This document shows, one piece after another, positions 34,228 to 43,824 of a DNA stretch of 64,000 bases. The stretch's first letter is position 1. Each line of letters starts with the position of its first letter. Origin of the DNA: Minisyncoccota bacterium (GTDB lineage: Bacteria > Patescibacteriota > Minisyncoccia > Phycocordibacterales > BOKC01); assembly GCA_030583745.1 (NCBI GenBank), contig CP129473.1, positions 362,887 to 426,886 on the forward strand, read 5' to 3'. Position numbers and translations under genes: made by a program. The notes under the pieces were generated by a model. That model was not told the DNA's origin, did not search any database, and saw nothing but the letters and a program-made list of their open reading frames with translations.

Positions 34228-34292
34228 AGTAGTCCGTAACCTCTGCTAATCCACCGTTTGAGTTGGTAACGACACTGGTGCCGCCTAGGTGG
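34228..34292 (-). pseudogene. Stub of RHS core 3' region (third, truncated copy); encodes ...HLGGTSVVTNSNGGLAEVTDYY... but is not followed by a toxin ORF.
   Basis: ~63 bp nearly identical to 36778..36843 and similar to 37970..38035. Confidence 0.5.
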
Positions 34293-34359
34293 TGTTATAG
34301 AAAATAGCACTGTCACAATTTCCTTAGCAACAGAAATTGTAGTTTAAACTAAAGGCTTT

Positions 34360-34734
34360 TTAATCATTATTCCAAAAATTAATTACATTATTCCACTCAT
34401 TTTTAAGATTGTCTGATAAATAAATCAAAAATTCCTCAGGATTAGCGTCTTTTTCCCAAGAAATATTATTTTGCAAGGTTTCTAATAATCCTATTGTAAT
34501 TGCTTCTTTGACATATCTATCGCCATCTTTAAATATGTTATCTATCAGTTTAAATATTGTTTTTAGTTCTTCTTCCTTTTTTTCTTTATAAAGTTTTAAA
34601 ATGTATCTGGAAAGCTCTGCAAGAATTGTGTAGACATCTTCTTTCTCCCAAACAAATTCCATAAACTCTAAATATCCTCTGAACCCATCAGATTTTTTGA
34701 CTATGTGGTCTGTTAAATCTCTCTTAGTAAACAT
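34360..34734 (-). CDS. Hypothetical 124-aa acidic protein; candidate immunity protein for the orphan toxin 34735..35505.
   Basis: Position immediately downstream of toxin cassette with 1-nt spacing. No recognisable family. Confidence 0.4.
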   Translation of the reverse strand: MFTKRDLTDHIVKKSDGFRGYLEFMEFVWEKEDVYTILAELSRYILKLYKEKKEEELKTIFKLIDNIFKDGDRYVKEAITIGLLETLQNNISWEKDANPEEFLIYLSDNLKNEWNNVINFWNND

Positions 34735-43100: not shown

Positions 43101-43615
43101 GGAATAGAAATTGACCACCCATACCCAACGAAACTATTATTGACAGCAAGACTACTATTGTAAACAAGGTTCAAATCAGGAGCTATATTATTTCGTCCTG
43201 GTGGTAAATCAATAGGGTATTTATACAAAGCAGCTCCCGTCAAGACATCGACATCGGGAAGAAAAGCATTAATGGCATTAGGGTTTTCAACAATTTTATC
43301 TTCGCTTGTACTAACTTCAATTTTACGATCATCATTTTCTTTTCTTAATTCCCCCACCCTTCCTAAGTCAGCGCTTCTATCCTTATTCTCAAGAATTTGT
43401 TTGTCTTCAGTGTTAGAAGGTTCAGATTGCCCTCCTAAAGTAATGGAGAAAACCGGCTCTGAAGATTCTTTTTGAGGAATAACCTCCTGACTGGTCTCTT
43501 CAGTTTGTTGTGCACGAACTTCTCTAATAAATAGAAGTGTATGTGTTGGCATAAGAAAAGAAACAGCTATTAAGCTCGCCGTTATTCTTGCAAACACCGA
43601 ATTTTTTACTTTCAT
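37130..43615 (-). CDS. RHS/YD-repeat polymorphic toxin (Tc-toxin TcB/TcC-like): signal peptide, SpvB-like N-domain, 7-blade FG-GAP-like propeller, RHS repeats, RHS repeat-associated core, C-terminal toxin.
   Basis: SpvB motif FLPDVDVLTGAALYKYPIDLPPGRNNIAPDLNLVYNS. DVNGDGLPDYVV blades. YD repeats (YDALGRV, YTYDGLGR, YEYDRQGNL). Core ending RYQDGKVGRFISQDP. ORF-track start 43663 trimmed to MKVKNSVF (43615). Confidence 0.85.
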   Translation of the reverse strand: MKVKNSVFARITASLIAVSFLMPTHTLLFIREVRAQQTEETSQEVIPQKESSEPVFSITLGGQSEPSNTEDKQILENKDRSADLGRVGELRKENDDRKIEVSTSEDKIVENPNAINAFLPDVDVLTGAALYKYPIDLPPGRNNIAPDLNLVYNSSLAVNNSFVGYGWSISIPYIERVNRNGAHQFYTNATSTFTSSLSGELVLDSGNTYKSRVEDGSFLNYEFSDNKWIVTDKSGTKYLFGTTTQSRQLNASSTDQIYKWMIEEIRDANSNFVKFNYIRDNNQIYPSSIVYTSHSSNDGIFTVDFIHENREDPVPSYDAGFKVITSKRISNIQIKIDNSLTKEYLLNYTTGYNDNRSLLQSVVASSTIGQLPPTEFEYQTITTNQEFDPDFYQLPSHYRTTEQDYYFWGLREYVQLIDVNGDGLPDYVVAPDMADDDGIIPDNNNLKPRVYLNTGTGWQFDPDFYQLPSHYRTTEQDYYFWGLREYVQLIDVNGDGLPDYVVAPDMADDDGIIPDNNNLKPRVYLNTGTGWQFDPDFYQLPSHYRTTEQDYYFWGLREYVQLIDVNGDGLPDYVVAPDMADDDGIIPDNNNLKPRVYLNTGTGWQFDPDFYQLPSHYRTTEQDYYFWGLREYVQLIDVNGDGLPDYVVAPDMADDDGIIPDNNNLKPRVYLNTGTGWQFDPDFYQLPSHYRTTEQDYYFWGLREYVQLIDVNGDGLPDYVVAPDMADDDGIIPDNNNLKPRVYLNTGTGWQFDPDFYQLPSHYRTTEQDYYFWGLREYVQLIDVNGDGLPDYVVAPDMADDDGIIPDNNNLKPRVYLNTGTGWQFDPDFYQLPSHYRTTEQDYYFWGLREYVQLIDVNGDGLPDYVVAPDMADDDGQIPNNNNLSPRRYSNKGKASDYLSRINMSEGGTVQFDYKLEAIVGPNPRRPFYPQSLYVVKNMGVGDGLGNTATTSYSYFDGEYYYHADQFRQFVGFGRTEKTDPAGNLTKTYFHQGNTTATSTGEYNDHVSKAGRPYRVEQYDNSGNLYAKTINKWDRFDLGNKSSFVKLADTLEFLYDGNSTHREKATSFSYDNSTGNISQRTEWGEVSGNDNGTFTDIGSDKFTTNISYATSTGGPPLFYLPSVETILDQNSNKIRETRRYYDNLSLGNLGKGNGTKTEYWKSDNNYISVEKVYNNFGLVTEEKDPRGKITTYVYDLHNLYPATTTNPLSHITERYYDYSSGKPREIIDPNGNTFQVFYDSFGRIIEEKQPDLDSPGNLVTKTAFSYDDFSFPRSIKRTDYLNSATSSDAYTYLDGLGRVIQERREAEDFNNFSVRDFAYNAIGKIQKESLPYFSTGASSTPATTTSALYIEHSYDALGRVKTIFNALGTTANTYNDWKLTVTDPLNKVKHFYKDAYDNLVKVEEINNANTYTTTYNWNGNRNLTKITDAEGNIRNFTYDGLGRNLTAEDLHNPTDNTFGIWSYDYDPAGNLASSTDPKGQNIIYTYNDLNRRLTENYTVWSGTEVEYGYDSCPNGIGQLCSATTTIMVLSNEYDPLGRVKKETKKIINTNYATQYEYDRQGNLTKLTHPDSSFISYDYNKAGLLEKVAWKEPTSIYPSVLAHDLDYSPLGQVTYLHYGNNASTTNTYDPDKLYRLSNKTTRYNENVWQDLSYTYDAVGNITKIIDSSDTNTAKMIDYAYDDLHRLTSASTTDAVGGNYSEAYTYSNIGNITSKSDQGNYLYEGNQGSNYANPHAVTSIASNTLTYDKNGNLTALGQSSFSWDYRNQLTEISNGATTTTYSYDPQGNRLTYAINNSATTTYITRHYDVKNRKPTKHIYAGDDLIATIETSVLQTGGGGFGGFGSMSEPIDASAKIFYLHPDHLLGTSVVTKSNGGLEELTDYYPYGKIKLDEQASTFKTSKKYTGHTYDEDTDLNYMNARYQDGKVGRFISQDPVFLAVGNSQVIKEKTGLELEQYLSDPQLLNSYSYVKNNPLKHTDSTGEFIDIFLDVGFIGYDLYKIGQDIARTGSVSRENITALGADIAGAALPGVAGLGFAARIGGKADDVNDARKAIERVIDSSKSLRVGDSIGDLGKIVEPTAGKFGGYTPYSAMRSETRGVSHQDVLNTIGNPVAKLEQTSGRSLYLTKETAVVLDNKTNKVITTYSKKQFEPHIIKFLKKYAE
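40985..42455. repeat. Tandem array of ~6.7 copies of a 219-bp unit (six copies essentially identical, distal copy diverged) inside the RHS gene; each unit encodes one 73-aa FG-GAP-like blade.
   Basis: Identical 219-bp strings starting near 41203, 41422, 41641, 41860, 42079, 42298. Protein repeats FDPDFYQLPSHYRTTEQDYYFWGLREYVQLIDVNGDGLPDYVVAPDMADDDGIIPDNNNLKPRVYLNTGTGWQ. Confidence 0.9.
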
Positions 43616-43824
43616 AACTTTTATTAGTAGGTAGATAACTGATAAGTCTAAACTCCTCCACATTAAGATTACCCATTACTGTTGTCAACATATAACAGAA
43701 TTTATTTCTTCAGAATCCTATTTCAGCCTTATTTTAAAGGATAAAATCAACAGTAATAAAAATTAGAATAAAATTTGTCAATAAGGTCTGACAGTTTAGA
43801 GGTAGACCAACGTCCGAACTAAAA

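Follow-up and report, generated by a model that had tools for sequence, protein, structure and literature searches.

Tc toxins possess a propeller that docks onto TcA, and the YD-repeat protein WapA bears cell-wall-binding repeats, not an SpvB N-terminal domain followed by an FG-GAP propeller. In the Rhs proteins that have been studied, two aspartyl motifs lie 17 residues apart, the catalytic aspartate is in the second of them and autocleavage has been shown (PMC8636562). Activation of orphan toxin cassettes by recombination was demonstrated experimentally in Salmonella (PMC3967940), and WapA of Bacillus subtilis and Streptococcus suis is exported in a signal-peptide-dependent manner, with no dedicated injection machine (PMC5566331, PMC12704120). 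Among the toxin families that matter here, DUF4258 was recently classified as Ntox49 in the colicin-like BECR branch, and the molecular target and mechanism of Tse2 are unresolved (PMC12133291). Here we describe an rhs locus that lies entirely on the minus strand of a 64-kb stretch of contig CP129473.1 (hereafter the window; unless a contig is named, positions are window positions), and compare it with these systems. The genome is of the Patescibacteria type. Patescibacteria live attached to other bacteria, and to our knowledge their means of antagonism are largely unknown; our literature search found no publications on Rhs systems in this group.

We consider it very probable that a strain-variable island in this genome encodes an Rhs polymorphic toxin system, made up of a full-length toxin, two spare toxin/immunity cassettes and a repeat scar. 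An earlier note on this DNA had proposed such a locus, with a main gene, two orphan C-terminal (CT) cassettes and three putative immunity genes, and we confirmed this layout on the minus strand. The locus has the marks of an Rhs polymorphic toxin, namely a YD shell, an Rhs core, unrelated tips with adjacent small open reading frames (ORFs), and orphans that share core homology. This is textbook Rhs architecture, and the known logic of Rhs systems is left unchanged. Less usual is its form, a strain-variable island of ~9.66 kb in the genome of an uncultured member of the Patescibacteria.

The taxonomic placement holds on one marker gene, SecA. The 80 best tblastn matches of the SecA encoded in the window are 62-70% identical to it and are all uncultured records, either metagenome-assembled genomes (MAGs) or single amplified genomes. 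Most are named as Paceibacterota, Parcubacteria, Taylor-, Adler-, Zambryski- or Campbellbacteria and several plainly as 'bacterium'; none of the 80 is named as another phylum. Because these relatives carry mostly names of Patescibacteria-group taxa, we assign the source to uncultured Patescibacteria (candidate phyla radiation, CPR) of the Paceibacteria/Parcubacteria type, as the earlier description of the genome as CPR-like had suggested.

The main rhs gene

The main protein consists, in order, of an N-terminal signal-peptide-like segment, an acidic linker, an SpvB/TcB N-terminal domain, seven FG-GAP blades, a YD-repeat shell, an Rhs core, a pre-toxin linker and a predicted RNase toxin. Its parts are as follows.

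37130..43663, minus strand: main rhs gene; the first ATG gives 2177 aa and the second 2161 aa
42755..43240, minus strand: SpvB/TcB N-terminal domain, residues 142-303 (PF03534, E=3.4e-16, 59.7 bits against a cutoff of 22)
40955..42568, minus strand: FG-GAP beta-propeller, seven 73-aa blades from a 219-nt tandem array (PF13517 FG-GAP_3, E=2e-26)
37976..40876, minus strand: YD/RHS-repeat shell, ~residues 930-1896 (PF05593 in 10 stretches, E=3e-35; TIGR01643, E=7e-27; NF041261, partial)
37676..37975, minus strand: Rhs-associated core, residues 1897-1996 (TIGR03696, E=6e-16)
37442..37669, minus strand: main-tip pre-toxin linker (FIDIFLDVGFIGYDLY...ALPGVAGLGF), covering ~75 residues at the start of the tip
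37133..37441, minus strand: main toxin domain, last 103 aa, DUF4258/Ntox49-like, predicted colicin-E5-like BECR-fold RNase

The profiles thus confirm the SpvB, FG-GAP, YD-repeat and RHS-core composition given earlier for the 2161-aa form. Read from the sequence, the N-terminus carries a putative signal peptide (MKVKNSVFARITASLIAVSFLMPTHTLLFIREVRA/QQ, the slash marking the predicted cleavage site), and a Pfam scan of the main protein found no N-terminus of the T6SS (type VI secretion system) kind, that is, no PAAR or VgrG-interacting domain. The check for PAAR/VgrG, T6SS and type VII secretion system (T7SS) genes that the earlier note had suggested was made within the window. Among the ~36 of its 46 ORFs that were scanned, there were no T6SS, T7SS, PAAR, VgrG or TcA genes and none of the vgrG, hcp and Eag genes that accompany a T6SS-dependent Rhs effector; a SecA gene is present.

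The propeller is unusual in its uniformity. The 219-nt unit is present in 6.7 copies with 100% nucleotide identity (40992-42457; TRF, score 2932), and the array has a GC content of 51.6%, against ~40% across the rest of the rhs gene. None of 40 related loci has a comparable array. The complete identity of the blades points to a very recent amplification or to concerted evolution.

The earlier note had called the protein Tc-toxin-like. This stands for its TcB/TcC-type domain architecture; it does not stand for a Tc system, in that no TcA was found and the single-chain architecture is widespread in many phyla, with examples of 23-28% identity from plasmids of Janthinobacterium, Parabacteroides, Streptomyces, Rhizobium and Leptospira. 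The combination of SpvB-N, FG-GAP propeller and RHS shell is that of TcB-TcC, and one could read the protein as this part of a true ABC (Tc) toxin against eukaryotic cells, with TcA encoded outside the window. We regard this as highly improbable. No TcA was found among the ORFs scanned in the 64 kb, and the same architecture without TcA is common elsewhere; the protein carries a putative Sec-type leader of its own; an immunity-like ORF, a hallmark of interbacterial toxins, stands beside each tip; and the tips come from families of bacterial conflict (BECR RNase, Tse2-like). Furthermore, in a PDB search the only solved structures matched by the main-protein sequence were Rhs shells of T6SS effectors (Tse15, RhsA and Tse5), with no significant phmmer match to solved TcB/TcC chains.

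Of the two aspartyl motifs in the core of the main gene, the first is RFISQDPVF and the second, 44 residues later, is NPLKHTDSTGEF; in the core-tail alignment (A3) D72/P73 and D117/G120 are invariant. The core ends with PLKHTDSTGE in the main gene and with PLKYVDPTGE and PIKHVDPGGE in the two orphans, and TIGR03696 scores above its cutoff in all three. We read the second motif as the canonical PxxxxDPxGL demarcation of core from tip, in variant form. The CT region, which had been taken to begin at the DPxF junction, begins on the Rhs core model at this second D(P/S)xGE motif, 44 residues further on. The pre-toxin linker that follows recurs at 41-51% identity ahead of an all-helical toxin in contigs L116 and L004 and ahead of an HNH nuclease in L104, and its position before different toxins illustrates the module shuffling that is typical of polymorphic toxins. 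We also considered whether this linker is a PT-TG domain, but Pfam gave no match and BLASTP showed no resemblance to the PT-TG part of orphan 2, so that we call it no more than a pre-toxin linker.

The toxin tips

The three tips are mutually unrelated in sequence, and their toxin domains are basic (isoelectric point (pI) 8.6-9.9). For the main tip, a word-index homologue search found no homologue, and an exhaustive HMMER search was required. This search recovered a family of 206 cluster representatives, in which the domain always lies a few residues from the C-terminus of proteins of 79 to 2957 aa. DUF4258 (PF14076) is matched by 23 of 45 aligned members (best 3.6e-8), and the only invariant residues of the family alignment are R38, G14 and T83. 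An AlphaFold model built on this alignment (pLDDT 95.8) gave a compact alpha/beta fold, with N-terminal helices packed on an antiparallel sheet, as expected for a BECR fold. On the strength of this model, the main tip is predicted to be a colicin-E5/RelE-type BECR-fold RNase toxin. A comparison of the family profile with PDB sequences gave chance-level matches only. In Tepidibacillus and on the metagenome contig L086, relatives of the main tip form orphan cassettes that follow Rhs/YD-shell genes.

The tip of orphan 1 (36256-35945) matches PF18648 (ADPRTs_Tse2) with E=4e-12 and 47.2-48.5 bits against a cutoff of 26.6, over profile positions 8-128 of 137. By this match it is a Tse2-like toxin of the ADP-ribosyltransferase fold. 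Orphan 2 carries a PT-TG pre-toxin domain (35211-35005; PF14449, E=3e-12, 46.8 bits against 23.5) and a toxin domain of ~100 residues (35058-34738) that falls in no family. The model of the latter is a five-helix domain (pLDDT 82) with generic helical matches only, and its homologues are rare (53-68% identity). When the three tips were compared with PDB sequences, no match fell below E=0.1, and orphan 1 had no phmmer match to any solved chain. By these comparisons, orphan 2 (PT-TG and an all-helical domain) is the only unclassified one of the three tips.

These results revise two statements of the earlier note, that the tips have no recognisable toxin family and that all three toxin/immunity pairs look novel. 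Orphan 1 passes the PF18648 threshold and is Tse2-like, the main tip sits in a 206-member family that overlaps DUF4258/Ntox49 and has the BECR fold, and the third immunity ORF belongs to the Pfam family DUF7674. CT domains from non-toxin families, which would have spoken against a toxin locus, were not what we found, as the CT domains lie in toxin families or folds. Our verdict is that two of the three toxins are in known families or folds, and that the orphan-2/DUF7674 pair and the other two immunity ORFs are unclassified.

Orphan cassettes and repeated core segments

Three repeats of the core tail downstream of the main gene had been described. Pairwise alignment and tblastn bear this out, with exactly four core-tail copies in the 64-kb window including that of the main gene. 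The features concerned are these.

35921..36856, minus strand: orphan cassette 1, open frame 36856..35924 of 311 codons, core tail 36841-36488 (TIGR03696, E=4e-18)
34735..35637, minus strand: orphan cassette 2, open frame 35637..34738 of 300 codons, core tail 35637-35296
37978-37818 in the main gene and 36784-36624 in orphan 1, minus strand: 161-nt exact tract, ending at the Q-D-P codons, i.e. the first DP motif
34227..34291, minus strand: 65-nt core stub (HLGGTSVVTNSNGGLAEVTDY, then stop), direct repeat of the orphan-1 head 36777-36841, 2550 nt apart, 95% identity

Segment 36841..36624 is 95% identical over 209 nt to 38026..37818 of the main gene. Within it, the identical stretch first reported as 160 bp is an exact tract of 161 nt; the 48 nt ahead of it contain 10 mismatches. 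Such a mosaic of an exact tract and a mismatched neighbour indicates that the main gene and orphan 1 have recently undergone gene conversion or recombination, and the tract itself is a candidate substrate for such exchange. Segment 35625..35318 is 71% identical to the main gene over 307 nt. The stub shares 95% identity with the orphan-1 head and 80-86% with the main gene. Together with the orphan-1 head it brackets the 2.55-kb orphan block as one of two 65-nt direct repeats, which have a 32-nt exact run in common.

The orphans keep just the last ~70-115 codons of the core, with the core/toxin boundary motifs NPLKYVDPTGEG and NPIKHVDPGGEF. In neither orphan frame did frame analysis find a start codon ahead of the conserved core Met/Leu. 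At the 5' edge of orphan 2 (35621-35642) there is a perfect 9-bp hairpin, TAATCCACC-agtaga-GGTGGATTA, whose arms are the core sequence GGTGGATTA (NGGL codons) and an inverted copy of it; it looks like a rearrangement scar at the place where core homology starts.

The state of these frames bears on what the orphans are. They might be decaying relics of past tip displacements with no prospect of reuse, in which case their immunity genes alone would count and the downstream block would act as a defensive immunity island. Such a view can point to the missing start codons and export signals, to the lack of an above-chance promoter signal ahead of either orphan, to the 65-nt dead stub in which the array ends, and to a MAG contig from which the whole block is missing, which shows it to be dispensable. 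However, both orphan frames are intact over more than 300 codons and encode complete toxin domains above Pfam thresholds, several contigs from other runs are 100% identical and free of frameshifts, the 161 nt of perfect identity with the main gene argue for recent exchange, and recombinational activation was shown experimentally for the same architecture (PMC3967940). We therefore think decay a rather unlikely explanation and prefer to see the orphans as spare cassettes.

Relatives of the locus offered a further comparison. When the whole main protein was used in pattern scans, neither 185k species genomes nor JGI metagenomes yielded a relative; core-tail alignment was required, and a scan of metagenome contigs by this means yielded 40 loci. 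Several of these have arrays of 2-4 core tails, 1.2-1.9 kb apart, in the same architecture, and one, L098, has a main gene and three orphans with a small ORF after each. The long related proteins share the SpvB, FG-GAP and RHS architecture, some with carbohydrate-binding-module (CBM) or Ig inserts, and those with a complete N-terminus begin with a hydrophobic leader-like segment. There are short forms as well. Contigs L116 (1532-2701) and L004 encode a secreted mini-Rhs protein of 373 aa, built from a signal peptide of its own, a short stretch of core tail and an orphan-2-type toxin. In L093 (29-1060) a signal peptide runs straight into the core, the fusion point being YHLGGSS, at which the orphans of the window also start, and the toxin follows without a YD cocoon. 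Such mini-Rhs proteins suggest that a shell is not needed for core-tail/toxin cassettes to work.

The short forms could be taken to mean that the orphans of the window are themselves expressed alone as small toxins, from internal starts (ATG 36676, TTG 35505) or from an acquired leader, since the 373-aa protein pairs a signal peptide with an orphan-2-type toxin and the fusion in L093 occurs at the very position where the orphans start. We judge this improbable. A signal peptide is missing from the orphans of the window, the internal Met belongs to the conserved residues of the core, is found in the main gene too and has no Shine-Dalgarno sequence upstream, and a toxin left in the cytoplasm would bring no competitive benefit.

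Putative immunity genes

A small acidic ORF follows each tip, as the earlier note had observed for the two orphans. The three ORFs start 0-3 nt past the toxin stop codons and have pI values of 4.7-4.9.

36867..37127, minus strand: putative immunity gene 1, 86 aa, pI 4.7, starting 2 nt past the main-gene stop
35669..35917, minus strand: putative immunity gene 2, 82 aa, pI 4.9, starting 3 nt past the orphan-1 stop
34360..34734, minus strand: putative immunity gene 3, 124 aa, pI 4.8, DUF7674, its ATG abutting the orphan-2 stop

Compared with ORFs downstream of DUF4258-like homologues, the first shows a weak W/HDP...DEY motif (blastp E=0.04, hhalign probability 7%), which is a lead at most. The third matches DUF7674 (PF24722, E=9e-21, 74.5 bits against 27), a family on which our search found no literature. 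In contigs L004 and L116 a DUF7674 ORF, 54-55% identical to the third immunity ORF, directly follows the orphan-2-type toxin; both contigs encode the same 373-aa mini-Rhs protein and so represent at least one independent locus. Because adjacency to a homologous toxin is conserved between the window and these contigs, an immunity role of the third ORF seems plausible. No stronger evidence for a toxin/immunity relation at this locus is available than this pairing of orphan-2 toxin and DUF7674 on another carrier.

Assembly support and allelic states

Contigs from at least 5 other Sequence Read Archive (SRA) runs reproduce the unique junctions of the locus at 100% identity and end only inside repeats. 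L001, L002, L135, L136 and L137 together span orphan 1, immunity gene 2, orphan 2, immunity gene 3 and the stub, and several of the other-run contigs are 100% identical to the window, with no frameshift in the orphans.

36653-34238: contig L001, 100% match
37847-36788: contig L135, 100% match
45318-42428: contig L129, 100% match, upstream gene and rhs start
34265-22404: contig L131, 100% match, stub and downstream genes
34164..43824, no strand: strain-variable rhs island, ~9.66 kb, in a 35-nt spacer

These contigs decide against the possibility, raised in the earlier note, that the repeated core segments arose from assembly collapse. The window is metagenomic, and a 219-nt array with repeats of 161 and 65 nt is prone to assembler error, through collapse or chimerism. 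Yet independent assemblies reproduce the repeats and every unique junction and break only inside the repeats, and the three tips are unrelated in sequence, which leaves an assembly artefact scarcely credible.

A Capsule_synth-like gene, whose stop is at 43825, flanks the island on one side, and a methyltransferase gene, starting at 34144, on the other. In a Logan contig from another run, L132, 45360-43825 (98.7% identity) is joined to 34168-26459 (99.7%), with 'ACA' in place of the island; the join runs from the stop codon of the Capsule_synth-like gene to a point 24 nt ahead of the methyltransferase gene. The occupied-state junctions are confirmed by L129 and L130/L131. This empty site indicates that the whole locus, ~34164-43824, is an island present in some strains and absent from a near-identical one. 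Its GC content is 41.3%, against 38.5% in the rest of the window, and no integrase and no clear att-like sequence or target duplication was found at its ends.

A third state appears in a MAG contig, L134 (GCA_964587925.1), in which the main CT and immunity gene 1 (99.9% identical) are followed by a single 65-nt core segment and then by the methyltransferase gene. The segment is a hybrid, with the 5' single-nucleotide polymorphisms (SNPs) of the orphan-1 head and the 3' SNP of the stub. On this evidence the stub, which had been described as a third core stub, is better understood as one member of a direct-repeat pair around the orphan block than as the decayed remains of a third cassette. A crossover in the 32-nt exact run would produce just such a state, which could be a deletion of the 2550-bp orphan block or the state before insertion. 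Near-identical strains show three versions of the site: no island, an island without orphans (one MAG contig), and an island with the orphan block between the 65-nt repeats. We also observed that the island part of L134 (1-871) is 99.9% identical to the window and its chromosomal flank (807-4872) only 98.0%, which would fit either a recent transfer of the island between strains or a chimeric co-assembled contig.

Genomic setting

Pfam and NCBIfam scans of the neighbouring genes showed that the rhs locus is embedded in a large surface-glycan cluster. The island splits this cluster of ~30 kb into two parts, 22404-34144 and 43825-54800. The pseudaminic-acid pathway is represented by four genes.

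32404-33414: PseB
31218-32324: PseC-like
23973-25631: PseI
27729-28475: cytidylyltransferase

Other members are five GT4 glycosyltransferases, one flippase, one Wzy_C-TPR protein and three Capsule_synth-like paralogues. The last are in tandem at 43825-48407, immediately upstream of the island (488, 487 and 476 aa; weak match to Capsule_synth, PF05159), and sequence is repeated among them, as the first 70 nt of contig L132 match 48405-48476 too.

No phage genes were seen among the window ORFs scanned; a phage origin is a claim made in passing elsewhere (PMC10031880). At 54915-56657 a 580-aa protein has weak matches to VirD4/TraD-type coupling proteins (best NCBIfam E=2.5e-13, far under the cutoffs), and its gene adjoins a DUF4015 glycosyl-hydrolase-like gene. 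Rfam places a fourth tRNA (62054-62118; 41 bits, 65 nt), absent from the ARAGORN output, inside the tRNA-Pro/Leu/Ile cluster. A series of large secreted-looking proteins at 1052-7249 has sparse or no family assignment.

2533-5706: 1057-aa protein, no Pfam or NCBIfam match
5690-7249: 519-aa protein, fn3 domain
1052-2509: 485-aa protein, Gly_rich_2 domain

Of the ORFs of at least 90 aa, 42 of 46 are on the minus strand, and the GC skew is negative nearly throughout the window. Within the rhs gene (38-43 kb) the skew is positive despite the same strand, consistent with a foreign origin.

Proposed mode of action

Taken together, the parts of the locus suggest how it may operate. The main protein would be exported by Sec through its N-terminal signal sequence, and delivery would probably be Sec-dependent, by analogy with WapA. 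The YD cocoon would enclose the toxin until the aspartyl autoprotease of the core cut it free, and the predicted RNase would be delivered to a neighbouring cell, either a rival epibiont or the host bacterium, with immunity protein 1 protecting the producer. The orphans, which have neither a start codon nor an export signal, would serve as a silent store of toxins. A new tip could be fused to the main gene by homologous recombination in the core tail that they share with it, most readily at the 161-nt tract of orphan 1, and the orphan immunity genes may already guard against neighbours that deploy those toxins.

Several observations weigh against this account. The main tip itself scores 13.3 bits against DUF4258 (E=0.11, cutoff 25), below the threshold, and it is 23 of its 45 aligned relatives that match the profile, so that its place in that family is only transitive, and the family's usual His is a Tyr in this tip. 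In the core, the two aspartyl motifs are spaced by 44 rather than the canonical 17 residues (PMC8636562), and the second of them reads DSTG instead of DPxG. No Pfam or NCBIfam family was found for immunity ORF 1 at E<=10, nor any significant one for immunity ORF 2. In a promoter and terminator scan, 34.0-38.2 kb contained fewer promoter-like sites than shuffled sequence did, with no signal above chance. The copy number of the 219-nt blades is beyond verification with short-read unitigs, as unitig L129 ends 30 nt into the array, and the join in L134 could be an assembler's choice, this being a co-assembled MAG in which the join crosses the 32-nt exact repeat. The analysis covers 64 kb of the genome, and a TcA-like or other secretion partner could lie elsewhere. 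RNase activity, immunity, export, autocleavage and target are all predictions from sequence.

A bolder combination of these ideas would be that an epibiotic CPR bacterium uses a Sec-exported TcB/TcC-type cocoon to intoxicate its host bacterium or rival epibionts without TcA, T6SS or T7SS; that the identical-blade propeller is a freshly amplified, fast-evolving receptor or gating module; that the 65-nt stub is a landing pad through which strains gain and lose whole blocks of toxin/immunity cassettes; and that orphan 2 carries a new helical toxin family neutralised by DUF7674. As a whole we hold this combination to be doubtful. Short of it, the locus gives a clear, well-resolved example of a toxin system, contact-type or secreted, from Patescibacteria, and its three allelic states offer a natural snapshot of how such loci may be built and lost. 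The leads it provides are a candidate new toxin/immunity pair (helical domain and DUF7674), a predicted DUF4258/Ntox49-type RNase with Tyr for His, and a propeller of seven identical blades.

Comparison with known systems

With enterobacterial Rhs systems (rhs of S. Typhimurium LT2; displacement of rhs C-termini in E. coli) the locus shares a main gene that combines the YD shell with the core, a CT toxin that varies, and an immunity gene next to it. It also shares the downstream core pieces that lack a start, are fused to alternative toxins and have immunity genes of their own, and the identity tract for recombination (PMC3967940). In contrast to these systems, it has no T6SS, PAAR or VgrG in the window, and its N-terminus is a predicted Sec-type leader with SpvB and FG-GAP; the motif spacing is 44 instead of 17, 65-nt repeats surround the orphan block and the host is a member of the Patescibacteria.

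The TcB-TcC part of Tc (ABC) toxins has in common with the main protein SpvB/TcB-N, the FG-GAP propeller, the RHS cocoon, the aspartyl autoprotease and a hypervariable C-terminal toxin. The protein of the window is a single polypeptide with a putative leader of its own and with putative immunity genes, and no TcA lies in the window. Its seven blades are identical, whereas the propeller of TcB is diverged.

At the level of the tips, the main toxin domain is 9-20% identical in sequence to solved members of the BECR RNases (colicin E5, CdiA-CT(NC101), DUF4258-Ntox49) and lies below the Pfam cutoff. The orphan-1 tip scores above the threshold of the Tse2 family (Pseudomonas aeruginosa, PF18648) and has a small acidic ORF behind it, as Tsi2 stands behind Tse2. 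It differs in sitting on an Rhs core, while Tse2 is a free Hcp-dependent T6SS effector, and its immunity ORF has no detectable relation to any family.

WapA shares with the main protein the YD repeats, a polymorphic C-terminal toxin of the RNase type and a downstream immunity gene (PMC5566331, PMC12704120). WapA is the closest functional analogue for a bacterium that has neither an outer membrane nor a T6SS.

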